DNA from: Promethearchaeia archaeon
GTDB lineage: Archaea > Asgardarchaeota > Lokiarchaeia > Sigyniarchaeales > SOKP01
Assembly (NCBI GenBank): GCA_029856145.1
Contig: JAHQWK010000008.1
Coordinates: 64,001 to 128,000, forward strand
DNA: 64,000 nt
Direction: 5' to 3'
Below, piece after piece: positions 11,874 through 30,998 of the stretch. The notes beneath the pieces were generated by a model. That model was not told the origin of the DNA and ran no database searches. It was given only the letters and a program-made list of their open reading frames with translations. Position numbers and translations under genes: made by a program. Position 1 is the first letter of the stretch. Each line of letters begins with the position of its first letter.

Positions 11874-11933
11874 AAAAGTAAAAGGGTCAGTTCCCCAGCA
11901 AGTCCTTGAATAAAACGAGCGGGTGAGGTGAGT
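11874..11933 (+). repeat. Hairpin repeat copy A (left part only, truncated after the GAGGTGAGT loop)
   Basis: AAAAGTAAAAGGGTCAGTTCCCCAGCAAGTCCTTGAATAAAACGAGCGGGTGAGGTGAGT matches copies D-H. Confidence 0.9.
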
Positions 11934-11938
11934 TTCTC

Positions 11939-12160
11939 TTATTCCCATGCGGAATGATCTAAAATTGCGTTTGTTGGACACACATCTTGACACGCCATAC
12001 AATCAGTACACTCTCCAATATTCTCTGCTATGATTTTTCCATTAACTAATTTATAAACTTCTACAGGACACGCAATGATACAGTCCTCTGCACCAATGCA
12101 TCTGTCCAAGTCAATTTCAACCCAATGATCTTGATCTTCCCATTTTTTAATATTTACCAT
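11939..12160 (-). CDS. 2[4Fe-4S]-type ferredoxin
   Basis: CIGAEDCIIACP and CTDCMACQDVCP. Confidence 0.9.
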   Translation of the reverse strand: MVNIKKWEDQDHWVEIDLDRCIGAEDCIIACPVEVYKLVNGKIIAENIGECTDCMACQDVCPTNAILDHSAWE

Positions 12161-12293
12161 TTTTAGAATTCTCTTAGAATATTTAAGTTAAAATCAATTC
12201 ATTTTCTCTTTTTCTTCTTAAGGGTTGTTAAAATCTATTTAAATTTATAATTTATTCTTATTTTTCTAAAGCTTCTTTATTACCGTCGGAAAT

Positions 12294-13343
12294 CTAGTAT
12301 AAACGTAGAAAATTGAGAAATACTAATAAAAATCCTAATATAATGGTTAGTAAAAACAAATAAAAAGAATATACATTCCATTTATAGTGCCAAGTTCTTT
12401 TTTTGAGATCCCTCTTTCTTGATTTTTTGAAGCCAGTAATAGCTCCGGGTATGACAAGAATGATAGAAATTAAAGCTATTATACCATGAATAGTATAAAG
12501 TATGGCTCCTCTGTTTAAGAAGGTAGAGATAATCCAATATAAGAAAACACTTAAAGAAGTGAGAAAATAGCCAATACCAACGGTAATATGGAATTTCCTA
12601 TTTACAAATTTAGGAAGATCGTGAAAAAATTCAGTTACTGGAGACCTTTTTAATCCTGTCATAATAGCAACCCCTCCGAAAAGTAAAGAAATCGACAATA
12701 ACACAGCATGCCAAATCCAATCTGAGAAAGGTGTAATTGAAGCATCATCACTCCATCCTCGACTTTCCCAAAAACCTATATAATCATAATTTACAATCTC
12801 CATCCTAACGACCCATTTCACCCATTTATACCCTAGATGGTTTGGAGCAACAACTCTAACAGGAAATCCTTGTTCGACGGGAAGAACTTCACCATTCATT
12901 TCATATGCTAAAAGAACATTAGCCATACGTGCTTCTTCAATTGTCAAAGAGGAAGAATAATTATCTGCAGCATAAAAAACAACATCTATGGCCCCAGGTT
13001 TTACTTCCGCTAAATCTAGTAAATCCTTAACGGGAATTCCCTTCCATATTGCTGTAGCATATGGTCCATCAACACATTTTAGTGTAGCTAAAACCTCTTG
13101 TGAAGGTTGAGAAGTAAAGTTGGAATACGTAAAAGTCAAATTATTGTTGATATGTCCATTAATCGTTAATGTCCAATTATTTATCTCAATATGGGGAATT
13201 TCCCCCTTGCTTACTACAAAAAATTGATCATTAGGAGTAATAATAGCTCTACTAATTACGACTCCAGTCAATCCAATTAACGGAAGACATAACAAAATAA
13301 GAATTCCAATGTATTTTAAAAATATCTTTCTTTTTCTGTTCAT
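12294..13343 (-). CDS. Sulfite-oxidase-family molybdopterin oxidoreductase with C-terminal membrane domain
   Basis: TPNDQFF, Mo-ligand Cys in LKCVDG, LLAYEMNGEVLP..QGFPVR, GYKWVKW, GFWESRGW; about 4 C-terminal TM helices. Confidence 0.88.
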   Translation of the reverse strand: MNRKRKIFLKYIGILILLCLPLIGLTGVVISRAIITPNDQFFVVSKGEIPHIEINNWTLTINGHINNNLTFTYSNFTSQPSQEVLATLKCVDGPYATAIWKGIPVKDLLDLAEVKPGAIDVVFYAADNYSSSLTIEEARMANVLLAYEMNGEVLPVEQGFPVRVVAPNHLGYKWVKWVVRMEIVNYDYIGFWESRGWSDDASITPFSDWIWHAVLLSISLLFGGVAIMTGLKRSPVTEFFHDLPKFVNRKFHITVGIGYFLTSLSVFLYWIISTFLNRGAILYTIHGIIALISIILVIPGAITGFKKSRKRDLKKRTWHYKWNVYSFYLFLLTIILGFLLVFLNFLRLY

Positions 13344-13502
13344 AGAATATTCTTCAAATCTGAAATATATAATATTTTATAAGAGAATTAAAGAGTTATG
13401 ATAATCGCTTACAATTAAATCAATTAAGATTCCCTAATTTTAAAATTTCCTTGCTATAAATTATAAGATTCATATTTAAAATTATGTATTTTAAAAAAAA
13501 TG

Positions 13503-13543
13503 AAAAGGGTCAGTTAATGCGGTTTTTTTTAGTAAATAAGGAA
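13503..13543 (+). repeat. Collapsed hairpin-repeat remnant B (left-end and right-flank motifs only)
   Basis: AAAAGGGTCAGTT (13503-13515) and AGTAAATAAGGAA (13531-13543, as at the right flank of copy D) are separated by only 15 bp. Confidence 0.6.
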
Positions 13544-13604
13544 GATCTATAGTGAATTTTATTAAAATTAATACAATTAGATAATGAATAAAAATTAAAA
13601 AAAA

Positions 13605-15335
13605 TTATTTATATTTCTTATAAAATACGAGTCCTATTACTGCTATGGCTAGATATATTAGGTAATAATTACCGAAAGGAATTATATTCGGTTCTTCTTT
13701 AGCAATTCCAACTATTGCGAAAATACCCAAGTGATCTACACTGATTAGAACTTTTCCATCTCCAAGATCTATAAAATCTATTTTTTCCCACACTAAAGTA
13801 TCCATACTGAACCACCAAACTTCTATAGCCTTATATTTATTTACGTCGAAGTCAATGGTGATAGTTACAGGACCTTCCAAATTACTGGATTTGTTTATTA
13901 ATAAGTCAATGTACAGCAGACCATTTTTAAGGGATGCATATGTTGGATTATCAACCAACCCAGCAAAGAGTAAATGGGTAGCTTCAGAAACTGAAATCTC
14001 TACATTGATATCAAACTCTGTTGTACCATATGGGATGATGTTGAAATTATACCTTCCCTCGATTATTGTTGAATTTTTATAATATAAGAACCCCTGGTCA
14101 AAATTTGTTAAAGAAATACTATTATTCATGTATTTTATAATTCCATTTGGGAAATATTCTAAGTAATACACAATTTCTTGAGTTGATTTACGGATAATTT
14201 TTATCCAGTATTCACCATAAATTATCCTGTATTCTAAATCAAAATCCGGATCATACATTCTTATATTATCAAGCAGGTGATATAGATCAATACCCTTAGT
14301 TCCTTTTGGAACTAACAATGGCTGTCCACTCATGAAATATTCACCCGTCCTCATCAATAAATCTTCATTGGCAACAGCAATGGTAATATTTGAAGAGTCT
14401 AAAATCCAAGTTTCTGTTGGCCAATTCCATATAAAAATGTCTGCTCTGACTTCTTGAAATCCAGTTAATCCAAAATATGAGGATTTTGTAGAATTGATAA
14501 AGTCTATGATTTCTATTTTGTATTCCATTTTAAATAGGGATTTTCCCCCTGTATAAAAGATATCTCCAATATCTACGGCCCATTCAATGTCATCAAGAGG
14601 ATTAAAATCAAATATCCTAGTGAAATTAAGAGTAATACTATATGGAACCGTTCCTTGAATAGTAGTGTAAATTTCCCCAGTTTTTAATGTACCATTATTA
14701 TAATATTCTAATTTTACATATTCCCCGGATCCTGTACTGTTTTCAAGTAATATCGTATTAGGATCTGGAAATGATATGATTGGGGTTATATCGCCTCCTA
14801 AAAACATTATACAATCATCCTTCATTCTTTCAGCACACCATTGTATCATTAAACCATTGGTTCCATTTATTGGAATAAAAGGAGATGGGATTAGAGACAT
14901 GTAGGGATCAAATCCCAAGAAATCACCAACTCCCCCGTATGTAAAATTGACTAAAGAACAATTTACTATACCATAAGGCATTTCTTCTAATGAGTTGGTA
15001 GTTGTATTAAAAAATAAGTTTTTTAATTGGATTCCATAATAGTCGACACCAGTTCCTTTATAATTATTGAAATAAGTAATATCTGAGATATTATAGATAA
15101 CTCTAAATGGTCCAAAGAGAAGTTCAGTGCCATTATAATATCTAAGTTCCCAACCAACAACCGTACCCTCATCAAAATCCCAATAAATATTATCATTTGG
15201 AGGATCCAGAGGGGGATCGAAAGGTGTCGAAGCTACAGTATTTCTGATATTCAAATTTATCATTGAGAACAACAATATTAATGTAAATATTACTGACAAT
15301 ATTAAAACTCTATTTTTAACCATTTTGGATTTCAC
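13605..15335 (-). CDS. Secreted, C-terminally anchored cell-surface glycoprotein (Loki-CTERM-like tail)
   Basis: Signal peptide, many N-x-S/T sequons, C-terminus IPFGNYY + TM helix + KKYK. Confidence 0.75.
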   Translation of the reverse strand: MKSKMVKNRVLILSVIFTLILLFSMINLNIRNTVASTPFDPPLDPPNDNIYWDFDEGTVVGWELRYYNGTELLFGPFRVIYNISDITYFNNYKGTGVDYYGIQLKNLFFNTTTNSLEEMPYGIVNCSLVNFTYGGVGDFLGFDPYMSLIPSPFIPINGTNGLMIQWCAERMKDDCIMFLGGDITPIISFPDPNTILLENSTGSGEYVKLEYYNNGTLKTGEIYTTIQGTVPYSITLNFTRIFDFNPLDDIEWAVDIGDIFYTGGKSLFKMEYKIEIIDFINSTKSSYFGLTGFQEVRADIFIWNWPTETWILDSSNITIAVANEDLLMRTGEYFMSGQPLLVPKGTKGIDLYHLLDNIRMYDPDFDLEYRIIYGEYWIKIIRKSTQEIVYYLEYFPNGIIKYMNNSISLTNFDQGFLYYKNSTIIEGRYNFNIIPYGTTEFDINVEISVSEATHLLFAGLVDNPTYASLKNGLLYIDLLINKSSNLEGPVTITIDFDVNKYKAIEVWWFSMDTLVWEKIDFIDLGDGKVLISVDHLGIFAIVGIAKEEPNIIPFGNYYLIYLAIAVIGLVFYKKYK

Positions 15336-15500
15336 TAAATTTATTTATAAGGTATTAGGAATAATAGAATATTTAAATGTTTCTCACACCCCGAATTAAA
15401 TTGAATTTTTCATATTCCAGTAAGAAAACTGATTTCTGTTAAATTTGCTTAATTGGTACATTTTATAGTCTGAAAATTAGATTTAAATTTAACTGTTCCA

Positions 15501-15521
15501 GAAAAAGTAAAAGAGTCAGTT
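15501..15521 (+). repeat. Hairpin-repeat left-end remnant C
   Basis: GAAAAAGTAAAAGAGTCAGTT, one mismatch to the left end of copy A. Confidence 0.6.
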
Positions 15522-15891: not shown

Positions 15892-16098
15892 TAAAAATGA
15901 ATTACACAAAAAAATTCTTAAAAAGTCTAATAATTGCTGATTTGATTCTTTGTTTCTTTAAAAACACTCAATATTATTTTTGATAAATTGACCTATTTAG
16001 GCATTTCTTATGAAATATAAAATTGCAGAAGAAGATCGAGAGAAAAAAAATAGAAAAGAGTCTATAAAAAAGACAATAAAACATTTGGTAGTTCAATA

Positions 16099-16216
16099 TA
16101 AAGGGTCAGTTCCCCGACAAGTCCTTTAATAGAATGAGTGGGTGAGGTGAGTATTCAAAGGAATAAATCAGGGAACTGGTGGTATAATTGTGTGTTCAGT
16201 TCAGTAAATAAGGAAA
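16099..16216 (+). repeat. Hairpin repeat copy D (full)
   Basis: AAAGGGTCAGTTCCCC...GGTGAGGTGAGTATTCAAAGGA...GGGAACTG...AATTGTGTGTTCAG. Confidence 0.95.
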
Positions 16217-16274: not shown

Positions 16275-17372
16275 TTAATATGATTTAAATTCCCATTTAT
16301 CTAAATGCATATACATCGACCTTAGAATACTTGTTGTGTATGGCTCTCCGGATATTTCTTTAATATCTAGGAAAGCTTTTGTTATGTGTTTACAGAACTT
16401 CATACTCTTCATTCTTTTATTTATATAATTAGGACAGTCATGCTTAATAATTCTATTTTTTAAATCAATAAGTAAATTGTAATCTTGTCTCGATCCTGCA
16501 ATAACACTAAAAATTGTTTCACTGTTTACCATACCCCGAGTTTTCAGTTTAACATTCTTAATTTTTCGATTTTCGCGATCTACGTCTAATCTCGAGAAAT
16601 ACGTGATTAAATCCTCAAAACATAATTCTTTTGAACTCATTAATTCAGGGATAGGCCATTTGTCAAAAAGCATGTGCCTTCCAGCGACTAAAATATTAAT
16701 CTCTCCTGCATTTATTTCTTTAAGTGCTCTTGATAGATCCCATACCGTGGACCCAACTGTGAACACATCATCTATTATTAATACATCTTTTTCTTGGAGA
16801 TCATTAACATCTATTTTGTGAACCCCTTGGATATCATTAAATCGTTCTTCTAGTGTTTTTCCTTTATTTTTTCCTGTATCTTTCAATTTAAATGTTTTTT
16901 CAATAATACTTTCTAAATTAAATCCCAATTTTTTCAATTTTTTTAAAAAGGGATTAACAAGGTAAATGCATTGATTTTTCTCGTCTCTATTATACTTAGG
17001 GGGTATCGTTATATATGCTGTATTTTCAAATAAATCAATATTTTGGGTAAAGATGTAGGATAACCCATCTGCTAACAGTTTTCCCGCATATTTTTTAAAT
17101 TTTTCTCCTTTTTTAAATTTTAAAAGAGAAATAAGTTCAGAAAGAATGTTAATCGGGATTTTATAATTACCAATTTCATAAGCATGATATATACCTAATG
17201 TTTTGACTTTGTTAAAATACCATTCCTTAACTATATCGGGTGGAAGTGAGCAATTCAAGCATAAATCTAGACCTTTTTCCACTTGATTCATACACTTTAA
17301 GCAGAAAGGTTCTTGAATTAATCTTATTGGAATTTTCCCCTCGAGATAATAGGTATCCTTAAGATTTGTCAT
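16275..17372 (-). CDS. ComF-family phosphoribosyltransferase-like protein with N-terminal Zn ribbon and C-terminal SWIM-like finger
   Basis: CLKC..CLNC; VLIIDDVFTVGSTV PRT motif; HDCPN...FCKHI; adjacent to dprA. Confidence 0.8.
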   Translation of the reverse strand: MTNLKDTYYLEGKIPIRLIQEPFCLKCMNQVEKGLDLCLNCSLPPDIVKEWYFNKVKTLGIYHAYEIGNYKIPINILSELISLLKFKKGEKFKKYAGKLLADGLSYIFTQNIDLFENTAYITIPPKYNRDEKNQCIYLVNPFLKKLKKLGFNLESIIEKTFKLKDTGKNKGKTLEERFNDIQGVHKIDVNDLQEKDVLIIDDVFTVGSTVWDLSRALKEINAGEINILVAGRHMLFDKWPIPELMSSKELCFEDLITYFSRLDVDRENRKIKNVKLKTRGMVNSETIFSVIAGSRQDYNLLIDLKNRIIKHDCPNYINKRMKSMKFCKHITKAFLDIKEISGEPYTTSILRSMYMHLDKWEFKSY

Positions 17373-17397
17373 TTATGTTTCAAGAAAAAGAAAGTTA

Positions 17398-18408
17398 CTA
17401 ATATTTAAAAAGATTAGTTTGAACAACTGAATCTTTTTCTTTAGATTTTATTTGCTCTCTTTCTTCATATTCGAATAAGAGCATTTCTGCTATATAATCA
17501 ACATCATTTACATTACTAATTTTAGCTCCCCCCTTCTCCTTGATGATTTTGTTAGGAACATAAGCTTGCTCACATTCTTCAATTGGTTCTACTGCGATTG
17601 CTGGTTTTCCTTGTTCATCCCCAAAGCGTAACTGCCATTGAGTTCCACTAAACTTGTTTCCTTCCACAACAATATTTCCTAACCCTAATCCGCTTGTAAT
17701 TCGGTTCCTTATCTGCAATGCGCGTTTAGTTACGCTTTTGTAAGGGAATCTTTCAGATATTAAAGCTCCATTTGTCACAAGTTCCTTCACTAGTCTTTGA
17801 TTTTCTTTAGGATAAAGATTTAATATTCCGGAGGCAATAACACCTATAGCTCTCCCCCCGTTTTCAAGAGCACTCTCTATTGCGATTGTGTCGATACCTC
17901 TTGCGAATCCGCTGACAACCGTAAATCCTAATTCTGAGAATCTTTTTGCTATTGATCTTGCCATTTCTTTTCCATATTTTGTTGGATTTCTGGAGCCAAT
18001 AATTGCAACTGCTTTAAAATCTTGAGGATTAATTTCACCTTTTATAAATATTAGTTTTGGAGGTTGCTTAAGGAATTTTAAAATGGGAGGGTATCCTGTA
18101 TCAAAATAACTGAAACATTTTATTTGATTACTTTCACAAATTCTTAAATCTTGTTCTATTCTGTTAAAAACCTTGTTACTTTTTCTTTTTCCGAATTTGG
18201 TTATTTTCTCATCAAGCCCTCTAATTTGGGCGTTAAAATTGGTTTTTAAGCTTAGAAGGAATGACTTAAACTTATTTTCAGAAAAAGAAACAATTTCATT
18301 AAAGGAAAAGTCGTTCTTCTTAATGATTTTCAGGACAGATAACGGGAGTGATACTTCTCTACTTAAAAAAATGTAATCAATTAAATTTGACTGTTCCAGA
18401 ATTATCAC
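17398..18408 (-). CDS. dprA: DNA-processing protein DprA/Smf
   Basis: YP..LK....PP.L, VAIIGSRN, VSGFARGIDT, RNRITSG motifs. Confidence 0.93.
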   Translation of the reverse strand: MIILEQSNLIDYIFLSREVSLPLSVLKIIKKNDFSFNEIVSFSENKFKSFLLSLKTNFNAQIRGLDEKITKFGKRKSNKVFNRIEQDLRICESNQIKCFSYFDTGYPPILKFLKQPPKLIFIKGEINPQDFKAVAIIGSRNPTKYGKEMARSIAKRFSELGFTVVSGFARGIDTIAIESALENGGRAIGVIASGILNLYPKENQRLVKELVTNGALISERFPYKSVTKRALQIRNRITSGLGLGNIVVEGNKFSGTQWQLRFGDEQGKPAIAVEPIEECEQAYVPNKIIKEKGGAKISNVNDVDYIAEMLLFEYEEREQIKSKEKDSVVQTNLFKY

Positions 18409-18646
18409 ACTATTTGGAAGCTAAAAATTGTATAAAACTATATACAGAGAGTAAGTTTTTTAATCTTCTTATTCATTAATGATTAATTTTCAATATAAGA
18501 TTAATCATTAATCTTTTTAAATTGTTTTTCTTTACCGAATCTTCTTTTTAATTTATACTTATAAAAATTAATTGAACAAAAAGCTTATCATTTTCTTTTA
18601 TACACATAGTTCCAGATATTATGTTGTATAATAAATTAGACAAGAG

Positions 18647-18758
18647 AAAAGTAAAAGGGTCAGTTCCCCGACAAGTCCTTTAATAGAATGAGTAGGTGAG
18701 GTGAGTATTCGAAGGAATGAATCAGGGAACTGATGGTAGAATTGTGTGTTCAGTAAAT
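18647..18758 (+). repeat. Hairpin repeat copy E (full)
   Basis: Near-identical to copies D and G. Confidence 0.95.
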
Positions 18759-18792
18759 GTGATTTTATTAGAAAAAATAAAAGTAAGATTTT

Positions 18793-18810
18793 TTACGCAT
18801 TGGCTAAATT
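18793..18810 (-). pseudogene. 3' stub (..LANA*) of the 88-aa gene at 21425-21691
   Basis: TTACGCATTGGCTAAAT and flank AGAAAAAATAAAAGTAAGATT match 21402-21440. Confidence 0.75.
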
Positions 18811-18819
18811 CTACATATA

Positions 18820-19878
18820 TTATTCTTTTGAAGATGGATAATCACACTTAGTAGTTGGTTTAGTTTTCAATGCCAAGCGTTCTCGTTTCCAATCTTCTAT
18901 TCCCACGACTTTAAGGTTTTTTAAGAGTTCAAGTCCCTCAAAATTTTCAACAGGATTATCCCATAAACTTAGTTCCCTTAAATTAACTAAATTCTCAACA
19001 TTTTGCGTCTGCATTATTTTATTGTTGCTTAAATCTAAGTCTTCTAATTTCCATAACGAATCTAACCCCTCAATCTCAGAAATTTTGTTTTGTGCTAAGC
19101 TCAATCGCTTTAAATTTAGCAGACTTTCCAATCCTTTTATCTTAGAAATTTCATTTGCATCCAAATACAAATATTCCAAATTCTTAAGACTTTCTAGACC
19201 TTGTATTTCTTTAATTTTATTAGCACCAAGAATTAATTCTTTTAAATTACGTAAATTCTCAAGACCTTTTATCTTAGAAATTTCATTTCTATCTAAATAC
19301 AGATATTCTAAGTTCCTGAGACTCTCTAAACCTTCTAGTTCTTTAATTTTATTAGAACTGAGAATTAATTTCTTCAAATTATTTAAATTCTCAAGACCTT
19401 TGATTTCTGTAATATTATTCTCGTGAATGTTTAAAATCTCTAATTTTCTGAGCTCCTCCAGCCCTTTTATCTCAGTAATTTCATTTTGAGTGAGAATTAA
19501 CTTTTTTAAGCTAATTAAAGTGCCAAGCCCTTCTATATTTTTGATGGGATTACCATGATAATTAGCATCTCCAAAGTATAAACCTTCTAATTTCCTAAGG
19601 TTCGCTATTCCTTCAACCTTGGTAACGTAGTTCCCACTTATGTTTAAGAATTTTAGGTCTGTAAGATTCTCAAGATTCTCAAGTTTATCAATAATATTTC
19701 CCATAAGATACAATACTTCTAAATTATTCAATGTATCCAACCCCTCAACCTCAGAAAGACTACACGGAATAGTTATAAGCTCTAACTTATTATTATGAGC
19801 AAAATATTTTTTTCCTCGAATAATAGCATACTCTTCAGAATTTTTATCTGCCATCTCCAAGATATTTTTACGAAACAT
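18820..19878 (-). CDS. SDS22-like leucine-rich repeat protein, tandem copy 1
   Basis: About 12 22-aa repeats LxxLxxLxLxxNxIxxIxGL. Confidence 0.95.
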   Translation of the reverse strand: MFRKNILEMADKNSEEYAIIRGKKYFAHNNKLELITIPCSLSEVEGLDTLNNLEVLYLMGNIIDKLENLENLTDLKFLNISGNYVTKVEGIANLRKLEGLYFGDANYHGNPIKNIEGLGTLISLKKLILTQNEITEIKGLEELRKLEILNIHENNITEIKGLENLNNLKKLILSSNKIKELEGLESLRNLEYLYLDRNEISKIKGLENLRNLKELILGANKIKEIQGLESLKNLEYLYLDANEISKIKGLESLLNLKRLSLAQNKISEIEGLDSLWKLEDLDLSNNKIMQTQNVENLVNLRELSLWDNPVENFEGLELLKNLKVVGIEDWKRERLALKTKPTTKCDYPSSKE

Positions 19879-19958
19879 ACCTATATATATTTATGGGCAG
19901 TGATAACTATGAGAGTTCCATAAAAATAAAGAAATTAATTATTTCTAATATTCTTTAA

Positions 19959-20063
19959 AAAAGTAAAGGGTCAGTTCCCCGAAAAGTCCTTGAATAAAAC
20001 GAGTGGATGAGGTGAGTATTCAACGGAAAGGCGCAGGGAACTGGTGATAGAATTGTGTGTTCA
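19959..20063 (+). repeat. Hairpin repeat copy F (full, most diverged)
   Basis: TCAGTTCCCC..TCCTTGAATA..TATTCAACGGA..GGGAACTG..AATTGTGTGTTCA. Confidence 0.95.
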
Positions 20064-20108
20064 TGTTATCAAATTTAATTTTACTAGAAAAAATAAAAGT
20101 AAGATTAC

Positions 20109-20126
20109 TTACGCATTAGCTAAATT
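20109..20126 (-). pseudogene. 3' stub (..LANA*) of the 88-aa gene
   Basis: TTACGCATTAGCTAAAT directly abutting the LRR copy 2 stop codon. Confidence 0.75.
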
Positions 20127-21194
20127 TTACGTATAATATTCTTTTGAAGATGGATAATCACACTTAGTAGTTGGTTTAGTTTTCAATGCCAAACGCTCTC
20201 GTTTCCAATCTTCTATTCCCACGAATCGAAGATTTTTCAAGGAATTAAGCCCTCCAAACTCTTCAATAGGATTTTTCTCTAAAGTGATTACTTCTAAATT
20301 TGCTAAATTCTCAAGACCTTGAATTTGGGTTATGTTGTTCTCATCTAGCGCTAGACTTTCTAACTTCCATAACGAATCTAACCCCTCAATCTCAGAAATC
20401 TTGTTTTGTGTTAAACTCAATCGCTTCAAATTTAGTAGACCTTCCAACCCTTTTATCTTAGAAATTTGATTTCGTTCTAATTCTAAATGCTGCAAATTCC
20501 TGAGGTTATTTAAACCTTTGATTTCTTTAATTTTATTAGATTCAAGAACTAATTGTTTTAGATTGCTTAATTTATCAAGACCTTTGATCTCTGAAATTTT
20601 ATTCATGCCTAAATCTAATAATTCCAATTTTTTAAGGTTATCTAAACCTTTTATTTCCCTAATTTCATTAAGACCGAGATATAATTCTCTCAAATTGCTT
20701 AGTTTATCAAGACCTTTAATTTCTGTTATTTTATTTTGATCTAATTGTAAGATCTCTAAATTTCTAAGGTATTCTAACCCCTTTATCTCAAATATTTCAT
20801 TTTGAAAGAAAGAAAGCTTCTTTAAGTTGGTTAACGTGTTTAATCCTTTAATTTCTGAAATGGGATTGCCATGATTATTACCGTCTCCAAACCATAAAGT
20901 CTCTAGATTCGTTAAATTTTCTAAACCTTCGATATCAGTAATATAATTTCCACTTAAAATCAAAAGCTTTAAGTTCGTGAGGGCCTTTAGATTTTCAAGT
21001 CTCTCAATGCTATTAGTATTGAGAACCAATGTTCTTAAATTTTCTAAATTCTCGAGGCCTTCAATTTCAGAAAGACTACATGTGACATCAATGAGCTCTA
21101 ATACATTATCACAAATAAAATGTTTCTTTCCACGAATAAGAACATATTCCTCAGAATTTTTGTCTGCCATCTCTAAGATATTTTTACGAAGCAC
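20127..21194 (-). CDS. SDS22-like leucine-rich repeat protein, tandem copy 2
   Basis: Same architecture as copy 1; termini nearly identical. Confidence 0.95.
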   Translation of the reverse strand: MLRKNILEMADKNSEEYVLIRGKKHFICDNVLELIDVTCSLSEIEGLENLENLRTLVLNTNSIERLENLKALTNLKLLILSGNYITDIEGLENLTNLETLWFGDGNNHGNPISEIKGLNTLTNLKKLSFFQNEIFEIKGLEYLRNLEILQLDQNKITEIKGLDKLSNLRELYLGLNEIREIKGLDNLKKLELLDLGMNKISEIKGLDKLSNLKQLVLESNKIKEIKGLNNLRNLQHLELERNQISKIKGLEGLLNLKRLSLTQNKISEIEGLDSLWKLESLALDENNITQIQGLENLANLEVITLEKNPIEEFGGLNSLKNLRFVGIEDWKRERLALKTKPTTKCDYPSSKEYYT

Positions 21195-21691: not shown

Positions 21692-21964
21692 TTAACTTAC
21701 TCACCTCAATATTATTATGTAAATGATCATATATAAAGATGATCATTATGCATAATTTTTCCGTCGTAGAACATATATCAGTATAGTGGGATTGATCACC
21801 CCTCGTCGATCTCAATTATATTTTTTTTACTAATTTAATCATTGAAGGAAATCTCAATTATAATGATGTCAATATACATTAATTTCGATAGCGAAGATTG
21901 ATCATTAATAACGAAAATCATTAATTGATATTGATTTTTGATTGAAAAACAAAATTAAAAAAAA

Positions 21965-22361: not shown

Positions 22362-23339
22362 ATGAAAATAAAAATAAGAACAGCAAAATATAAACATAGT
22401 GGAGAACCTTTACAATTTAAAAAAATTGATATAGAATGTAAAGGCGCAGGAGTAAAAGAGGATCCATTTATATTGGATTCTTCTTCAGATATCCCTAATG
22501 ATTTTGAAATATTAGAATCTAAAGTACACATAATTATAAAAAATTGTCATGTTAACTCTTTAGTGTTAGGATATTCTAAGAACATCACTATAAAAGAGTG
22601 TTCTTTTAGAGCTGTATTTTTATACCATTGTGCTGATATAACAATAAATAAATGTCATATTAATTTTATGACTCTCAATGTATGTCGAAATTGCTTATTA
22701 AAGAATTCAAAATTCGATACAGAATTCAAGATATTTAAATGTTATAACAACACATTTAAAGCATGTGAATGGGATATATTTTTTGATTCAAATGACTTAA
22801 GTAGAGGAAATATCCTTGAAAGTATTGATGATCCTTTTATTGAAGATATCTTAGAAATACAAAAACCTTTAGTAAAAACAACAGATTCGTTTGCTATTTC
22901 AACATCTACTTTTTGGCATGGCGTTATTTTAAAAGATATCGAATGTCAAGGAACTGGAACAGTAAAGGATCCCATTATAATTGATAATTCAAATGTAAAA
23001 AAAATTGACCTAAAAGATATTGTAATATACCATAATAGACATCATGTTATCTTTAGAAACTTAACATTAAAAAAAATAAAGATATATGACAGTAAACATG
23101 TGACACTTGAAGGTTGTGATATTTCAAAGTCAATTCATCTAAAATTTTGTTCAGATATTAAAATTAGATCAATTTCAATGAAATTATTAAAATTTGGTGC
23201 ATGTCAAGATACATTCGTAGAAAACTCTGAAATTAAAGAACTTGATATATATAAAGGATATGAAGGATTTGTAAATTTAAGTAAATGTACTTTTAATAAA
23301 ACAAACGAAAACACTATTAAACATATCATATTTTCTTAG
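22362..23339 (+). CDS. Parallel beta-helix (NosD/pectin-lyase-like) protein with two GxGTxxDPxII modules
   Basis: ECKGAGVKEDPFIL and ECQGTGTVKDPIII, each followed by xxIxxC beta-helix turns. Confidence 0.7.
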   Translation: MKIKIRTAKYKHSGEPLQFKKIDIECKGAGVKEDPFILDSSSDIPNDFEILESKVHIIIKNCHVNSLVLGYSKNITIKECSFRAVFLYHCADITINKCHINFMTLNVCRNCLLKNSKFDTEFKIFKCYNNTFKACEWDIFFDSNDLSRGNILESIDDPFIEDILEIQKPLVKTTDSFAISTSTFWHGVILKDIECQGTGTVKDPIIIDNSNVKKIDLKDIVIYHNRHHVIFRNLTLKKIKIYDSKHVTLEGCDISKSIHLKFCSDIKIRSISMKLLKFGACQDTFVENSEIKELDIYKGYEGFVNLSKCTFNKTNENTIKHIIFS

Positions 23340-23364
23340 AGAGATACAAAGGTTCATTTTTTTT

Positions 23365-23619
23365 TTAAATCTTAGCTACTATTTCCGAATCTCTTTTTTT
23401 CAATTTTTCACTGACAATTTCTATATAGTATAAAAATAAACGTCCAGTTAAATTAATGATAAATGAGGAAATTGTTAGATAACTTAGATTATTAGCTCCT
23501 CTGCCTTCCCCTCTAATACCGATAAAATTAAAGTTCCAATCATATAAAACATCACTGTTATTAGCTTCTATTATAATAATAATTGATATAGTTGTAAGAA
23601 TTATACAAGAAAGTGATGC
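23365..23619 (-). pseudogene. Start-less 3' stub of a membrane protein
   Basis: 84 open codons ASLSCIILTTISIIIII...GIRGEGRGANNLSYLTISSFIINLTG...KKRDSEIVAKI*, no ATG. Confidence 0.4.
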
Positions 23620-23706
23620 CTAGTTAATCAAAAATAATATTTTCGTCAAGGAAAAATTACAATATCTAAATATAATGCTAAATATTTTAATTTCAAAACA
23701 AGAGAC

Positions 23707-25017
23707 GTGTCTACCAAATTGAACGGCACTTCCGCGGTCATGATGAACTTACCGATTTCTGTGCTCCAATATGTCCCCTGGTTCTGTGACTTCTCTAATT
23801 CTCCGATGGGCGCAAAGCCCGAAACCTTCGGAGAATGGTTCTGGAAACCGCTGGTCGCTCTAGCGAAAGCAATTGTCGGCGTCTTTGTCACCATAGTAAT
23901 GGCTATCGTAGAACTTGTAAAGTTGATCATCGATTTCTTTATCCAAATTTTCATGGACATCTTACCAATTCTAGGATATATACTATGGCTAATAATTCGC
24001 ACATTAATATTAATTTTCATTTGGATAATGTTTGTATTTACACTTTTAACAATATTAATTTTGTTGGTATCAACAATCGGATTAGGTCTTATCTTAGATA
24101 TATTTATGAATCTTGATATTAAGACTTCTTCAAATAGCGTAATTATAAGTGGTGATCTTTATTTATCCTTCAATTACAATATAGCTATAGAATATAATGA
24201 TTTTCTTTGTTTTTATATCCCTTCAATTAAGGCTTATCTTAATACTACTGATTTTGTTCTTGAATATTCTTTTAATTTTGGCTCAACAGATTTAAATATT
24301 ATAGAATTTAACAACTCACTGTTTGATGATTTATCTGAAAGTGGGCCAAATCAATCTTCAGAATCACTTCCAAAAATAAGTGGTATTTCATCGGTATTTA
24401 GCAATGGATTTGAATTTCTCTCTGGTTTAGGTTTTACAATGTCAGCGCTAGGAATACTTGTTGGTTTACAAGCAGGTATTTTAGCATTTAACTCAAATGA
24501 TCTTTATAACAACATAATATTTATCGTAGGAATTGCTTTATTCATAGCCAGTGTAATATTATTAGTTATTAAAATTTTGATTGATCCAGAAGAATTTTCA
24601 CAATGGATGCTTTGGGGTATGGGAGTAGGATGTATTATTTCTGCAATTAGGTTTTTCAAAACGAAAGATTACATTGATGATACCTTTCAATATAAAGCTT
24701 GGCATAGAAAAAAAGCCGGAGATAAAGATTTCTTTTCTATGCTCAAAAATATAAAGCTCATATGTGGTGGTGTTGGGTTTGGTTTAAGTATTGCAGAAAT
24801 GTTTGGTGATTGGGATGATAATGAAATATATAAGGTATGTTCAGCAATATTTTCGGTAATAGCAGGTTGTTTATCTCTAAAACTTGCAAATCATGCTTTG
24901 ATTATGTTAAAGGGGAAAAATAGAACTTACAAAACTAGAATTGCAGGTATTTATGGAGGAGGAAGTCTTATCCTAGCAGCAATCCTCTTTTCAATTGCGG
25001 CATGGAGTAATAATTAA
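23707..25017 (+). CDS. Multi-TM membrane protein, probably the 5'-truncated C-terminal part of a larger protein
   Basis: No convincing start or SD; GC-rich 5' segment; many hydrophobic Gly-rich helices. Confidence 0.55.
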   Translation: MSTKLNGTSAVMMNLPISVLQYVPWFCDFSNSPMGAKPETFGEWFWKPLVALAKAIVGVFVTIVMAIVELVKLIIDFFIQIFMDILPILGYILWLIIRTLILIFIWIMFVFTLLTILILLVSTIGLGLILDIFMNLDIKTSSNSVIISGDLYLSFNYNIAIEYNDFLCFYIPSIKAYLNTTDFVLEYSFNFGSTDLNIIEFNNSLFDDLSESGPNQSSESLPKISGISSVFSNGFEFLSGLGFTMSALGILVGLQAGILAFNSNDLYNNIIFIVGIALFIASVILLVIKILIDPEEFSQWMLWGMGVGCIISAIRFFKTKDYIDDTFQYKAWHRKKAGDKDFFSMLKNIKLICGGVGFGLSIAEMFGDWDDNEIYKVCSAIFSVIAGCLSLKLANHALIMLKGKNRTYKTRIAGIYGGGSLILAAILFSIAAWSNN

Positions 25018-25144
25018 AAATAAATTTATAACAAATTTTTTTTTATAATATTATAGAAATTGCATTATTAGAACTTAATTAACAGGACATAATATTTATA
25101 AATTATAAAATAATCATCCAAATAGTTTTAAAGTAAAGTGGAGT

Positions 25145-25783
25145 TTGATGGAGGAAAAATTTAAAAACTTCCTTGAGGAGGATGAAAAAATTTTATGGAT
25201 ACGAAAACAAAAAAAGAATTTATTGTTGATTATACCATTTGGTATTAAAGTAGGAATAATTTCTTCTTTCATTTTCTTAATTTTAATTTTGATAACAATA
25301 ATCTTAGAAACGATTTTAGGGATTGTAATTATTATATCAATTTTTGTGATTATAATTTGGTGGATAATCTTGTACATCAACCATCATATTAATAGAATGA
25401 AAAAAATATTACAATTATCTTCAAATGAATTAAGACAATATGATTTTATTGAAATTATTACGAGTAAGCGCTATATTCGGAAGAGTTATTTATTAAATTA
25501 TTTTAAAGATTTTTTAAAATATCCTAAAAATGTAATAGAACAAATTGGCGACATCGTATTTATAAAGCTAGATTTTATTGAAAAAGTTATTGTGGAATAT
25601 AAGTTTAGAAGGATAGGGTTATTTCTAAAAGGCTATAAACCAAAATTTTTTAATGATACAGATTTTTTCATAGAATTTACTGAAAACGACTTTGATGAGC
25701 TTTTAAAAATATTAATAAATACTCTAAATTTGGAAAAGAAAGAATCAAATCCCATTTTTGAGGAATATTTCAAAAAAAAGTAA
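25145..25783 (+). CDS. Hypothetical 2-TM membrane protein
   Basis: LEEDEKILW N-terminus, two TM helices, IITSKRYI motif typical of bPH-like domains. Confidence 0.65.
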   Translation: MMEEKFKNFLEEDEKILWIRKQKKNLLLIIPFGIKVGIISSFIFLILILITIILETILGIVIIISIFVIIIWWIILYINHHINRMKKILQLSSNELRQYDFIEIITSKRYIRKSYLLNYFKDFLKYPKNVIEQIGDIVFIKLDFIEKVIVEYKFRRIGLFLKGYKPKFFNDTDFFIEFTENDFDELLKILINTLNLEKKESNPIFEEYFKKK

Positions 25784-25787
25784 TATG

Positions 25788-26027
25788 TTATTGATTTGAA
25801 TAAGCTTCTTTTAATCCAATATATTTATTCCAGGAGTTAAAGAAAGCATGCATATATATATAAGAATTAATGAGTTCAATTACATAGGATTTTCCTTCAT
25901 CCGTTATTTCTATCGCATATCTTGGTCTAAAACGTTTATCCTTAAAATTTAATTTTTGTAGGATAAAAATATGACCACATTTATCACACAAATCAGGCAA
26001 ATGACAAAAGGGATTTAGCTGTTTCAA
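25788..26027 (-). pseudogene. Probable 3' gene fragment (PadR/wHTH-like end)
   Basis: R..Y.IEITDEGK motif, no credible 5' part. Confidence 0.3.
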
Positions 26028-26244
26028 AATATCAAATGAATTTACAAGAGCTCCATGGCACAGGATATTATAGTTCTAAACGAAATAGTTAATAGAAAAT
26101 TCAATACAGATTAGGAGGTAACTAAAATGTTTAAAAGAAATAAAGGATTTAGGATCTCTGAATTTCTTATCCAAAATATTACTATTAATAAAATTATTCA
26201 AAATTTGCTTAACGACAATAACTAGATCCATAGAACATATTATT

Positions 26245-26925
26245 ATGAAATTTACAATTTATAGGAATTATAATTTTGGAAGATTGCTCTTAACTGAGGA
26301 TATTGATATAGAATGTGAAGGAGAAGGGACAGAGGAAGATCCACTTATAATTATACCCTCAGAGAAAATCCCTACAAATTTCTTTCTAAAAAACTCCAAA
26401 ATTCGAGTAATTTTAAAAAATTTTAATACACACAATATCAGTTTAATTTCTTGTTTGAATGTAACGATTGAAAAATGTAAATTAAATAAATTTTTTATAT
26501 TAGAAAGTCATGACATTGAAATTAAAAGTACATCCTGTCATTATTTAAAAATATTAAAATCCTCGTATATTAATATTGAAAATTCCTTTTTTGAGAGGGT
26601 AAAAGTGAAGAATTCAATAAATAAAATATTATTAAGAGATTGTACTATTAATCGAATTAAAAGAAACCATTTTAATAATATTCAATTTGATAAATGTAAA
26701 ATTTTAAATCCATATTCGTTTAAATCAATAAATTTTCTATTAAAAGACAATAAAAGAGCAATACTTATAGTTGCAGTTATTACTATTATTATAATAGTAG
26801 GAGTAATTTTAGCACTATATAACTTTGTATTATTATTAATATTTATCCCAGTTTTAATATTCATTAAATGGTATTTTAGTTTTAAGGAAGAAAGAGAAGT
26901 GAGAAAAAGAAAAAAGTTAGAATAA
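26245..26925 (+). CDS. Beta-helix protein paralogous to 22362-23339, with C-terminal TM hairpin
   Basis: DIECEGEGTEEDPLII, beta-helix turns, 2 TM helices. Confidence 0.7.
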   Translation: MKFTIYRNYNFGRLLLTEDIDIECEGEGTEEDPLIIIPSEKIPTNFFLKNSKIRVILKNFNTHNISLISCLNVTIEKCKLNKFFILESHDIEIKSTSCHYLKILKSSYINIENSFFERVKVKNSINKILLRDCTINRIKRNHFNNIQFDKCKILNPYSFKSINFLLKDNKRAILIVAVITIIIIVGVILALYNFVLLLIFIPVLIFIKWYFSFKEEREVRKRKKLE

Positions 26926-27090: not shown

Positions 27091-27194
27091 TGTAGAAAAT
27101 TATATTTTTAATTTTTAATTCTTTATTATATAAAGAATCCGAAAATATACGCAAAGGTAAATTAATAAATGGAGCTACTCCACGAGTTTATAAA

Positions 27195-27528
27195 TTAACC
27201 AATTTAGAATTACGGAAAGATAATTTACTAGATCAAGATTTTTGATTGTAAATAAAAGATAAGATATAAAAAAAGAAATATTATTATTAGTTTAATGATG
27301 AATAGGGCGTCCTTTCTTATGGATAGATTTACCTACTACAGCTTCACTACCTTCGAGTACCATTTCTGAAATTGTAGGGTGGCTATGGATGGTCTCTCCA
27401 ATATCATGAATGGTTAACCCATGTTGCATTGCTAGTGCTATTTCAGCTATCAATTCGGGGGCTTCAGTTCCAATACAGGAAGCACCGAGAATTTTATGTG
27501 TAGTTTTATCAGCAAGAACCATAAAGAA
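27195..27528 (-). pseudogene. lpdA 3' stub 1 (last 78 codons) plus about 95 bp of downstream flank
   Basis: FFMVLADKTTHKILGASCIG...HSHPTISE...GRPIHH*; flank shared with stub 2. Confidence 0.92.
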
Positions 27529-27695: not shown

Positions 27696-28244
27696 TTAAA
27701 AATTTATTACTTCCGGATTGCTTTTAAAGAATTTTTTAAAAGATTTTCCATTCGTAACATACATTCCAGAAAGTTTTTCTCCAATTAATTTTCTTGATTC
27801 GGGTAATTTCTTTTTAATAGCAGCAGGTATACCTACTGCCAAAGATCTACGTGGAAGTTCTTGATTTATTAAAACAGCTCCAGCAGCAATTTGAGATCCT
27901 TCTTCAACTTTAGTTCTATGTAAAACATTAGATCCAATGCCTATTACACACCCATTTTCTATTGTACAAGGGCCGTGTATCATTGCATGGTGTCCTATTA
28001 TACAATTATCGCCAATGTCAACAAAAGAACCTACCTCCATATGAATAGTAACATTTTCTTGAATGCTGGTGTTTTTTCCAATTTTAATAGGACCGAAATC
28101 TCCACGTAAAACTACTCCAAACCAAATATTACTTCCCTCGTCAATTGAGACATCTCCAACTATTACAGCAGTAGGAGCAATATAAACAGATTCATGTATT
28201 TGGGGTTTTTTTCCTGTTCTCGGACTTGCCATAATTATTGGCAA
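27696..28244 (-). CDS. Gamma-carbonic-anhydrase-family hexapeptide-repeat protein
   Basis: IWFGVVLRGD, IQENVTIH, IGHHAMIHG. Confidence 0.9.
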   Translation of the reverse strand: MPIIMASPRTGKKPQIHESVYIAPTAVIVGDVSIDEGSNIWFGVVLRGDFGPIKIGKNTSIQENVTIHMEVGSFVDIGDNCIIGHHAMIHGPCTIENGCVIGIGSNVLHRTKVEEGSQIAAGAVLINQELPRRSLAVGIPAAIKKKLPESRKLIGEKLSGMYVTNGKSFKKFFKSNPEVINF

Positions 28245-28620: not shown

Positions 28621-28654
28621 TCTTTCTTAAATATAATTTGAAATAATAAGAAAT

Positions 28655-28989
28655 ATACCAATTTAGGATTACAGAAAGGTAAATTACTAGATCAAGATTT
28701 TAGATTGAGCACAAAAGATAAGATATGAAAAAAGAAATATTATTTTTAGTTTATTGATGAATAGGACGTCCTTTTTTGTGTATAGCTTTTCCTACAACCG
28801 ATTCTGCTGCTTCAAGTACCATCTCCGAAATGGTCGGATGAGAGTGAATTGTCTCTGCAATGTCATGTATCGTTAACCCATGTTGCATTGCTAATGCTAT
28901 TTCAGCTATCAATTCGGGGGCTTCAGTTCCAATACAAGATGCTCCTAAGATTTTATGGGAGCTTTTATCAGCTAAAATCATTAAGAAAC
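28655..28989 (-). pseudogene. lpdA 3' stub 2 (last 78 codons) plus about 95 bp of downstream flank
   Basis: FLMILADKSSHKILGASCIG...HSHPTISE...GRPIHQ*. Confidence 0.92.
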
Positions 28990-29019
28990 GTTCTTAATGA
29001 ATATTTAGCAAATGCGTAA
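28990..29019 (+). pseudogene. 3' stub VLNEYLANA* of the 88-aa gene, inverted orientation
   Basis: GTT CTT AAT GAA TAT TTA GCA AAT GCG TAA; amino-acid identical, synonymous differences only. Confidence 0.85.
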
Positions 29020-29072
29020 GAATCCTTTTTTCTGATTTTACATTTTCTCTTAAATTTAATTTAATGCCCTAA

Positions 29073-29176
29073 ACTGAACACACAATTCTATCATCAGTTC
29101 CCTGATTCATTCCTTTGAATACTCACCTCACACACTCATTTTATTCAAGGGTTTGCCGGGGAACTGACCCTTTTAC
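29073..29176 (-). repeat. Hairpin repeat copy H (full, inverted)
   Basis: Reverse complement of copies D-G; its left-end motif overlaps the TAA of the 78-aa gene. Confidence 0.95.
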
Positions 29177-29409
29177 CTTAATTTGTAAAATCTTTTACCA
29201 TCTTTAATTTCCGTTTCGACTAAACCCTGTTTTTCTAACATCCTTAATTTAAAATTCACATAATAGTAATCCATGGTATCTTTAGCTTCTTTTAGGTTAA
29301 ATATAATATCGTTTACACTTTGAAATTCCCTAGTTAAAGATTTTAAAATAATTTCTTCTGTAACTATTTCTATATCAGATTCTTGGTGAAGATTTTTAAC
29401 TTTCTTCAT
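29173..29409 (-). CDS. Small winged-helix protein
   Basis: ILKSL...SVNDII...KLRMLEKQGLVETEIKDGKRFYKL. Confidence 0.75.
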   Translation of the reverse strand: MKKVKNLHQESDIEIVTEEIILKSLTREFQSVNDIIFNLKEAKDTMDYYYVNFKLRMLEKQGLVETEIKDGKRFYKLR

Positions 29410-29516
29410 ACAAATAGTAATTAACGATTTCTTTCTTTTATTAAATTTTGATTCCTTTTAATTATTTTTCAACTTTTTGTTCTTAATAAGTAAAATATAA
29501 ATTAAAAAAATAGGCT

Positions 29517-30998
29517 TTAATGATGAATAGGGCGTCCTTTCTTATGGATAGATTTGCCGACTACGGCTTCACAACCTTCCAGTACTAATTCTGAAATTGT
29601 GGGATGACTGTGAATCGTTTCTGTTACCTCGTGAATGGTTAGACCATGTTTCATCGCTAAAGCTATTTCTGCTATTAATTCGGAGGCTTCAGCTCCGATA
29701 CAAGATGCACCGAGAATTTTATGTGTAGTTTTATCAGCCAGTACCATAATGAAACCTTCTTCTTCTCCCATACATTTAGCTTTACTGAGTGATTGATATG
29801 GAAATTGTCCCATTAACACATCAAAACCCAGATTCTTTGCTATCTTCCTTCTATATCCAACAGAACCGATATTAGGAGAAGTAAAAATGGTTGCTGGTAC
29901 GACAGTATAATCTGTTTTCATTTCTTCTGAAGGAAAACCTCCAATACTTGTTAAGGAATTAGCTACCGCAACATCTGCTTCGTGATAAGCAACATGAGCA
30001 AGCATAATTCCACCCGTCACATCACCTATTGCGTATACTCCCTTCACTGCGGTTTCTAAAGTTTTCGGATTTACTTTAATAGCTCCTCTTTCTGTTTCAA
30101 TACCTACCACCTCAAGTCCTATATTTTTGGATTCTTTTGCACGTCCTATTGATACTAAGCACAAATCTGCTTCAAATATATCTTTTTCAGCATTTTCTGT
30201 TTGATCACGAGGAACATCAGCGGAACAAGTTGTCGCCTTTACACCATTTCCTGTATTTTCTACAGATAGCACGTTTTTTGCTGTATGAATATCTATGCCA
30301 AGATTTTCAAATTTTTTTTGAAGTACTTTAACAATCATTGGTTCTTCAGTAGCAATAGGAGAGGAAAGATATTCTAACATAGTAACCTTACTTCCAAAAG
30401 TTGCAAAGATATTAGCAAATTCACAACCTATAACTCCAGCACCTATAATTAATAATCGTTTTGGAATTATCTTAAAATTAGGATCTAGAATATCGTCACT
30501 CGTTAAAATTCTTTCATGATCGATATTGAAAGCAGGAATTAAAGCTGGAGATGATCCAGTAGCAATAATTATTCTTTTTGCTTTAATAGTTGTATTTTTT
30601 TCACCTTCAATTGAGATTTCGAATCCAGTATCAATATTTCCTCCGATTATCTTCCCAAATCCATTATAAATATCGTTTTTCCAACCCTTCTCTAAAGCTT
30701 CAATTCCATCTACTAATTCTTTTACCACCTGATTTTTCCGTTCTACAGCTTTAGAAAAAGAGAGTTTGAAATCAGAAACTTCTATTCCAAATTCATCAGC
30801 TTCTTTAATTTTTTCGATTAAATGAGAAGATGCATATAAAGCTTTTGTAGGAATACAACCTCTATTAAGACATGTACCTCCCAGTTTATCTTTTTCAATT
30901 AAAGCAACTTTTGCACCGTATTGTGCCGCTCTAATAGCTGAATGATAGCCTCCAGGCCCTGCTCCGATAATAGCTAAATCATATTGGTTTTCACTCAT
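29517..30998 (-). CDS. lpdA: Dihydrolipoamide dehydrogenase
   Basis: GAGPGG, GGTCLNRGCIPTK, GAGVIG, HPTISE. Confidence 0.96.
   Translation of the reverse strand: MSENQYDLAIIGAGPGGYHSAIRAAQYGAKVALIEKDKLGGTCLNRGCIPTKALYASSHLIEKIKEADEFGIEVSDFKLSFSKAVERKNQVVKELVDGIEALEKGWKNDIYNGFGKIIGGNIDTGFEISIEGEKNTTIKAKRIIIATGSSPALIPAFNIDHERILTSDDILDPNFKIIPKRLLIIGAGVIGCEFANIFATFGSKVTMLEYLSSPIATEEPMIVKVLQKKFENLGIDIHTAKNVLSVENTGNGVKATTCSADVPRDQTENAEKDIFEADLCLVSIGRAKESKNIGLEVVGIETERGAIKVNPKTLETAVKGVYAIGDVTGGIMLAHVAYHEADVAVANSLTSIGGFPSEEMKTDYTVVPATIFTSPNIGSVGYRRKIAKNLGFDVLMGQFPYQSLSKAKCMGEEEGFIMVLADKTTHKILGASCIGAEASELIAEIALAMKHGLTIHEVTETIHSHPTISELVLEGCEAVVGKSIHKKGRPIHH

Follow-up and report, generated by a model that had tools for sequence, protein, structure and literature searches.

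The 64,000-nucleotide (nt) window analysed here (positions 64,001 to 128,000 of contig JAHQWK010000008.1 from a Promethearchaeia archaeon) raises the question of how accessory genes can accumulate behind conserved genes of an archaeal chromosome when no recombinase is found next to them. The window is part of a 3.55-Mb metagenome-assembled genome (G000; 97% complete, with a contamination estimate of 5.4%). Between its hdr operon and an lpdA-like gene lies a modular region (Table 1) in which cargo genes alternate with repeated ends of two genes: lpdA itself in a right array and, in a left array, a gene for an 88-amino-acid (aa) protein (the anchor gene) that is followed by a hairpin. The initial annotation took this region for a hotspot of cassette stacking with no recombinase in the window; all the repeat pieces described for both arrays are found in the sequence, and no recombinase was detected in the window. 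Strong copies of the hairpin and of the lpdA tail are confined to this single locus of the genome. Comparison with related genomes (denoted by working labels beginning with G or L) suggests that accessory genes accumulate behind the two conserved genes because DNA of related species recombines in, leaving a spare gene end each time.

Empty and filled alleles

In G033, L091-093, L096-098, G083, G101 and G119 (three of these empty-allele genomes belong to the sister genus), lpdA, the 88-aa gene, one hairpin and a gene for an 89-aa protein follow one another with nothing between. About 20 genomes possess filled alleles, with differing cargo of 0.4 to >14 kb behind the hairpin, and in every filled allele whose sequence reaches the 89-aa gene, a displaced hairpin abuts that gene. 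Displaced lpdA tails are also present in G011, G023, G029, G034, G036, G072 and G075. As anticipated in the initial annotation, the number of modules differs between genomes. The small non-autonomous units that it proposed appear to be added repeatedly and from related lineages, but small size is not a general property, the modules of the relatives reaching 11-23 kb.

The hairpin and the 88-aa gene co-occur in part of the genus and in three genomes of the sister genus, and the anchor unit may be an old insertion restricted to a subclade. In G005 (L126:533-3206), lpdA directly adjoins the 89-aa gene, and the 88-aa gene and the hairpin are absent.

Displaced and restored gene ends

The displaced lpdA tails are host-like and the restored tails foreign, in agreement with the earlier suggestion that incoming DNA restores the 3' end. 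The displaced tail of G023 and G036 shares 89-91% identity with the intact genes of relatives, against only 77-78% for the last 240 nt of the intact gene; in G011, the displaced tail is 92% identical to G029/G063 and the last 120 nt of the intact gene are foreign, with a tract of 75-90 nt identical between the two lpdA copies of this genome. A family of large proteins of unknown function (630-1335 aa) is encoded convergently to lpdA at L038:2191-4083, L043:2081-6088 and L047:1558-5169, and the lpdA tail is foreign in all three genomes. On the hairpin side, the distal hairpin of G064 is a chimera, G000-type in its 5' half and host-type in its 3' half, that switches in the conserved core, as predicted by a single crossover. 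The hexapeptide-repeat gene of the window is 91% identical at the nucleotide level to the copy behind the hairpin in L083, which is above the identity of most core genes. Together with the thyA and idh loci described below, the lpdA and hairpin comparisons support a related lineage's allele of the same locus as the donor. The locus is mosaic, and the closest relative of G000 is not fixed.

Within the window, the end of lpdA is indeed repeated twice, although the breaks fall within 3-4 codons of each other rather than at one and the same codon, as initially described; counted back from the end of the stop codon, the tails begin at 233-237 and 245 nt. The lpdA tails carry no hairpin. Both displaced tails (27292-27528 and 28751-28981) are open in frame from an ATG (76-77 aa), as is that of G011, and would encode a putative fragment of the dimerisation domain if expressed.

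The module beside lpdA spans 766 nt and, in accord with the initial description, has the lpdA break at one end and an inverted tail of the 88-aa gene with its hairpin at the other. The 88-aa gene is natively inverted, facing lpdA, in G006, G010, G016, G028 and L081 (inversion of the anchor gene together with the hairpin is seen in L031, L032, L033, L034 and L081), and the best matches of the inverted tail in the window are natively inverted genomes (76-83%). The module reads as a piece of a chromosome with such an inverted gene, and the two arrays would be linked because it comes from this arrangement. At the joint between the module and the next lpdA tail (28990-28995), the two sequences overlap by a 5-nt microhomology, AAGAA; the only other joint for which both parents are known, in G072, has 2-4 nt of microhomology.

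Breakpoints

The fixed intragenic sites that had been postulated are not borne out. On the hairpin side, displaced copies begin at more than 15 different points spread over ~230 nt, from -100 to ~+135 relative to the stop codon (those at the hairpin stem being upper bounds): ~-100, -68, -63, -44, -31, -20, -17, +31 and +36 before or at the stem, +13 to +30, +45 and +51 within the hairpin, and further ones at the 3' arm. The lpdA tails represent eight independent events, only four of which cluster, starting at -247 to -233 (G000 twice, G011 and G034) with no tail extending further; the other four start at -207, -189, -120 and -60. Erosion of the displaced tails is real, given that G023 and G036 share one event with starts at -207 and -177, 30 nt apart. 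The four clustered starts lie just past the most conserved 45-nt window of lpdA (-297 to -252; 0.86 vs a median of 0.77 in 33 sequences), and it is at the 3' edge of this block that diverged alleles would be expected to cease pairing. Cutting at the edge of the block by the mismatch nuclease NucS/EndoMS is unsupported, with no NucS match in G000.

A genome-wide signature

Gene ends repeated within 40 kb, outside paralogous open reading frames (ORFs), were sought throughout G000. Tails are found downstream in 20 cases vs one upstream, and heads upstream in seven cases vs one downstream. Removal of paralogous domains leaves 19 fragments at 17 genes (p ~2e-4 for the configuration); they are 74-90% identical to the respective gene ends, with tails of 65-483 nt and 0.6-9.3 kb of enclosed DNA, and 348 of the 632 mismatches across fragments (55%) are at third codon positions. 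By eye, no shared motif is visible at the fragment starts of the 17 genes. The displaced tails of thyA and idh, together with what adjoins them, have their match in native gene ends of G007 and G017; the intact idh of G000, which is replaced over its whole length, is 93% identical to that of G001, where the same cargo lies behind idh. Because few genomes are hit at thyA and idh (2 of 38 and 2 of 50, respectively), the hairpin site is, on this comparison, a true hotspot of a general process. Loci with this signature in G000 include L108 (idh), L109 (thyA), L110 (amidohydrolase, with two stacked tails), L111 (head of HisRS) and L112 (head of pyrophosphatase).

Among 400-kb samples of other genomes, that of G023 contains six fragments, none in the wrong configuration, the signal in G005 is weak, and G044, from another family, has one fragment in the right and two in the wrong configuration. 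No account of a displaced-gene-end signature in Asgard archaea was found in the literature searched.

The hairpin of the anchor gene

Judging from the covariation of its loop with the ribosome-binding site (RBS) of its own gene, the hairpin is a functional part of the transcript of the 88-aa gene, a conserved RNA element predicted to pair with this RBS. In each of the 17 true orthologues that were examined first, it is located 55-75 nt 3' of the stop codon; its stem variants are mostly compatible with G-U pairing on the gene's strand, and on this strand the full copies fold far better than shuffled sequences (z -3.7 to -5.4). The loop is the reverse complement of the RBS of the 88-aa gene, with a match of 11-13 nt in all orthologues, and the pairing shows two independent compensatory changes, U-A to C-G in G033 and G-C to A-U in L092, L094, L096, G083 and G101, with G-U intermediates in G001, L081 and L093. 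All 35 primary copies have an intact loop, vs 21 of 33 displaced copies (related copies not being independent); the hairpin behind the 88-aa gene would owe its preservation to a role as a regulatory RNA, with a loop that pairs with the RBS of that gene. For the predicted transcript, two folds are obtained, with the RBS-loop pairing present in the minimum free energy structure at a probability of ~0.4. These features suggest fold-back silencing of the translation of the 88-aa gene by the hairpin loop, a candidate case of 5'-3' translational control or a toxin-like module in an Asgard archaeon. The repeat would then be the displaced end of a regulated gene and not a dedicated recombination site.

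A similar arrangement is known in type I toxin mRNAs (hok, aapA), in which the RBS is occluded by long-distance 5'-3' pairing (PMC6733600). As in these mRNAs, an anti-Shine-Dalgarno sequence far downstream of a short ORF pairs with the Shine-Dalgarno sequence, and alternative folds are predicted; unlike them, the present element is archaeal and its protein is a soluble-looking three-helix 88-mer. The structural model of the anchor protein consists of three helices (pLDDT 78) and yields only generic helical-hairpin structure matches, with no informative family or fold match and no Atlas match; its homologues are labelled Promethearchaeota or Lokiarchaeota. Distant paralogues (92-125 aa, 21-54% identity) are encoded in most genomes of the genus (e.g., G000:C7:166795-166986 (L113)), and there the hairpin is absent.

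Searches of Rfam and with ARAGORN detect no family and no tRNA, respectively, for the hairpin. A small ORF within the repeat was rejected, no start being conserved, and a dif-like, hammerhead or C/D-box identity was rejected by inspection. Reading the RBS and the loop as the DNA terminal inverted repeat of an element similar to miniature inverted-repeat transposable elements is disfavoured because the internal variants, read on the sense strand, allow G-U pairing.

In the left array, full hairpin copies are ~82-93% identical among themselves, and those at 19957-20125 and 18646-18809 both include the last 17 nt of the 88-aa gene. The two units with leucine-rich repeat (LRR) genes (1316 nt) have one common junction and are 84-90% identical over the first 300 nt and 95% over the last 100; the pair may represent an old duplication or unequal exchange.

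Possible mechanism and alternative explanations

These observations are best compatible with homology-anchored additive recombination with congeneric DNA, either through a joint of the kind seen in homology-facilitated illegitimate recombination (HFIR) or by a single crossover of a recircularised fragment, followed by reshuffling between copies; we consider this scenario probable, albeit well short of certain. A chromosome fragment of a related species, consisting of the end of lpdA or of the 88-aa gene with its hairpin and whatever followed in the donor, would enter the cell by some presumed route and pair with the resident gene by homologous recombination of the RadA type (a RadA family member is present in G000, and dependence on it is assumed). 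The far end of the fragment would be joined to the recipient by microhomology or a blunt joint, directly in the HFIR-like case; alternatively, the fragment would circularise and then integrate by a single crossover, so that the intermediate may be linear or circular. The incoming end would restore the gene, and the resident end would be displaced behind the cargo with a variable 5' start. Modules would stack because each extra copy of the hairpin or the tail is a new landing pad, and they could also be swapped between lineages by crossover in the conserved core of the hairpin, and erode.

Several observations weigh against additive recombination of this kind. Half of the lpdA tails (4/8) start within ~15 nt, and the foreign tracts in intact lpdA start near the clustered starts (-265 to -245), both of which are also predicted by a site-specific crossover with later erosion. 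A single XerA-like recombinase gene is present in most of the genus (PF00589 match in 51 of 53 genus genomes), so that such an enzyme exists in the lineage. The starts at the hairpin stem are only upper bounds, since the AT-rich spacer fails to align between lineages. HFIR is described as rare and as usually deleting rather than duplicating (PMC5361080, PMC3240628). Finally, no very close donor (>92%) of the modules in the window was found, and neither was ComEC in G000, which leaves the entry of DNA unexplained.

Some of these points favour a site-specific recombinase acting in trans, whether XerA or an integrase brought by a passing element, which would insert DNA into lpdA and the 88-aa gene at fixed sites, with subsequent deletion of the enzyme and erosion of the fragments as in the tandem accretion of integrative and conjugative elements and cis-mobilizable elements. 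The clustering of lpdA starts, the foreign restored tails and the demonstrable erosion are all compatible with this possibility, and, as in Islander-type integrase islands (PMC4383910), the target gene is regenerated, its displaced fragment lies beyond the insert (3' fragments downstream, 5' fragments upstream), and insertions stack with the same polarity. We nevertheless regard such an enzyme as an unlikely cause. In contrast to the integrase islands, no integrase and no fixed crossover subsite at the hairpin are found, and what is targeted is not tRNA or tmRNA genes but numerous protein genes and a single regulatory hairpin. Further, idh is replaced along its entire length, the chimeric hairpin switches inside the repeat and not at its 5' edge, and the hairpin pattern has no match in IMG/VR. 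No PF00589 match is present on any array-bearing contig in 54 genus genomes (incomplete assemblies), and the large cargo proteins of the relatives match no recombinase family. In G000, searches with the profiles PF00589, PF00239, PF07508, PF02371, PF00078, PF01797 and PF01867 gave no match, so that tyrosine or serine recombinases, IS110, reverse transcriptase, Y1 transposase and Cas1 were not found, which in an incomplete assembly is no proof; the XerA of the genus was not found there either, probably because of an assembly gap or else through loss. There is no evidence for the catalysis in trans suggested initially by a site-specific enzyme, the same signature being present at 17 unrelated genes of the genome.

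Tandem duplication in place, through illegitimate recombination and with later divergence and loss of one of the cargo copies, would involve no foreign DNA at all and would yield the same configuration of tails downstream and heads upstream, so that the configuration by itself does not tell it apart from additive recombination; the shared junction of the two LRR units and the displaced copies that match their own genome best (G007, G061 and G062) also fit it. Most of the exclusion comes from three observations: most fragments have unrelated cargo on either side, mismatches are in excess at third positions, as between functional alleles (25 of 36 and 38 of 59 in the lpdA tails), and the intact tails of G023, G036 and G011 are foreign. 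Given also the match of the inverted module to the native arrangement of other lineages and the hexapeptide-repeat gene that resembles another species' allele with the same cargo more than core genes do, in-place duplication appears rather improbable.

For an integron-like cassette array, the standard of comparison is the attC site, in which RYYYAAC precedes GTTRRRY, with a fixed G/TT junction. In the stem of the hairpin, GTT precedes AAC (5' and 3' arm, respectively), an order opposite to that of attC, and the junctions are scattered and not at one G/TT point, which bears out the initial judgement that the repeat is not a canonical attC; moreover, the copies include coding tails, the lpdA tails lack the hairpin altogether, and the repeat belongs to a host gene and is conserved, as a single copy, in empty alleles. 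Asgard genomes show an enrichment of integrons, most of them without intI, and, as in archaeal clusters of attC sites lacking integron-integrases (CALINs; PMC9668308), each small cargo unit is bounded by a hairpin repeat with no enzyme in cis. The co-orientation of the cargo holds at this locus of G000 (6 of 6 ORFs of at least 100 aa) but not in the relatives (4/3, 2/4, 7/4 and 0/1), so that the integron-like promoter orientation noted initially is not general. A CALIN with the hairpin as an atypical attC is therefore most improbable. RNA-templated insertion, which would generate 5'-truncated copies with a common 3' end, seems scarcely credible: the hairpin fragments do share their 3' part and differ at the 5' end, but this follows simply from displacement, and the modules have promoters and genes on both strands and reach 23 kb, displaced 5' heads occur as well, and no reverse transcriptase was found in G000. 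Misassembly of several strain haplotypes would be a concern for a metagenome-assembled genome with some estimated contamination, judged here from its assembly; it is highly unlikely, given that the repeat copies differ from each other by 7-25%, the same architecture is found in ~20 independent assemblies, and the ferredoxin/hairpin junction is common to the window, G016 and L082.

Relationship to known systems

Displacement of gene ends by homologous recombination has been proposed before. For Rhs loci, C-terminal displacement has been suggested (PMC2935791), and for effector-immunity arrays of the Vibrio type VI secretion system (T6SS), sequential displacement (PMC5361080). As in these arrays, the resident gene end gives way to a homologous one from outside and moves downstream, and strings of fragments of variable length are seen, with an integrase absent and homologous recombination involving a circle or HFIR proposed. 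In Rhs and T6SS arrays, however, the swapped tip is the selected function, whereas the tail described here is an anchor only and the cargo is unrelated; the genes targeted here have housekeeping or regulatory functions, and the signature extends to at least 17 genes across the genome.

In Escherichia coli, recircularised linear DNA generated gene-end duplications of 109-950 bp (PMC3240628). These HFIR and insertion-duplication events share with the present locus one homologous anchor, a gene-end duplication of variable length (55-480 nt here) and, on the reading proposed above, one microhomology or blunt joint; they differ in being laboratory events of low frequency in bacteria, and HFIR proper usually deletes recipient DNA. 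In the literature searched, neither HFIR nor insertion-duplication has been shown in Asgard archaea.

Cargo genes

The features of the locus are compiled in Table 1. In the DprA/PRTase pair, the phosphoribosyltransferase (PRTase) is extended at its C terminus by a stretch that shows, as judged by eye, a SWIM-like Cys/His pattern. The second lpdA module contains a 69-codon fragment (28331-28540) that resembles part of a secreted surface protein. The cargo of the relatives also includes defence genes (TIR, Csm6 and Cas6): in G011, the 23-kb insert behind lpdA (L047:1558-20000 and L048:1-6279) encodes an orphan Cas6 and Csm6 (CARF-HEPN) together with large unknown proteins, with no integrase match.

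Table 1. Features of the modular region between the hdr operon and lpdA (positions in the window)
Feature	Position	Strand	Remark
Conserved 89-aa Cys-rich gene	11555..11824	+	Distal flank of left array; abuts single hairpin in empty alleles
Displaced 3' half of hairpin	11873..11933	-	Begins at anti-RBS core; junction with ferredoxin gene same in G016 and L082
Cargo: 73-aa 4Fe-4S dicluster ferredoxin	11939..12160	-	
Cargo: molybdopterin oxidoreductase with membrane domain	12294..13343	-	PF00174
Probable 13-nt remnant of hairpin 3' arm	13503..13515	-	13-mer found only here and in hairpin copies
Cargo: 576-aa secreted/surface-type protein	13605..15335	-	79% nt identity to G016 copies
Remnant of hairpin 3' arm and empty-site flank	15490..15521	-	Its 21-mer is unique in the genome
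Displaced full hairpin without gene tail	16093..16208	-	Starts at ~+36 from stop
Cargo: DprA-like and PRTase pair, ShosTA-like defence module	16275..18408	-	ShosA E 1e-56, ShosT E 4e-7
Displaced 88-aa-gene tail (17 nt) and full hairpin	18646..18809	-	
Cargo: LRR protein 1	18820..19878	-	
Displaced 88-aa-gene tail and full hairpin	19957..20125	-	Junction homologous to that at 18809
Cargo: LRR protein 2	20127..21194	-	
Primary conserved RNA hairpin, 3' region of 88-aa gene	21286..21360	-	No Rfam family
Anti-RBS loop motif	21324..21334	-	Complementary to and covarying with 21698-21708
88-aa anchor gene, three-helix protein	21425..21691	-	No known family; Promethearchaeota
RBS of anchor gene	21698..21708	-	11-mer otherwise only in hairpin copies of the genome
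Variable genes (two DUF3737-like paralogues, membrane proteins)	22362..26925	+	Between outer lpdA tail and anchor gene; no DNA match in relatives compared
Outer displaced lpdA tail (27291-27528) and ~100 nt of ancestral 3' flank	27192..27528	-	85% nt identity
Cargo: hexapeptide-repeat (gamma-carbonic-anhydrase-like) gene	27696..28244	-	
Inner displaced lpdA tail (28750-28995) and 3' flank	28651..28995	-	76% nt identity
Inverted anchor-gene tail and hairpin	28990..29188	+	Best matches are genomes with anchor gene natively facing lpdA
Cargo: 78-aa gene	29173..29409	-	Homologous stretch directly behind hairpin in G015
Intact lpdA-like flavoprotein disulfide reductase gene	29517..30998	-	Target of right array

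Implications

The locus bears on how Asgard archaea come by their large accessory gene sets. No new enzyme or site is involved at this locus; the mechanism is inferred, and the comparative evidence is strong. Given that the displacement mechanism itself has already been proposed for Rhs and T6SS loci, the additions are the genome-wide scale and a new conserved RNA motif, with covariation that points to 5'-3' translation control in an Asgard archaeon. The locus offers a clean series of empty and filled alleles in ~30 genomes, with defence genes among the cargo. It is possible, and we put it forward tentatively, that additive interspecies gene-end recombination is a main route of accessory-gene acquisition in the genus (~5 to 15 scars per Mb), operating by host end-joining beside a homologous anchor or through a low-specificity recombinase such as the XerA of the genus, and that its strongest hotspot is a previously undescribed archaeal gene whose 3' hairpin silences its own RBS much as in type I toxin mRNAs. 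Since the scars can be counted, are polarised and occur genome-wide, rates, donors and the order of acquisition may be read from existing assemblies without reference to a mobile-element enzyme.

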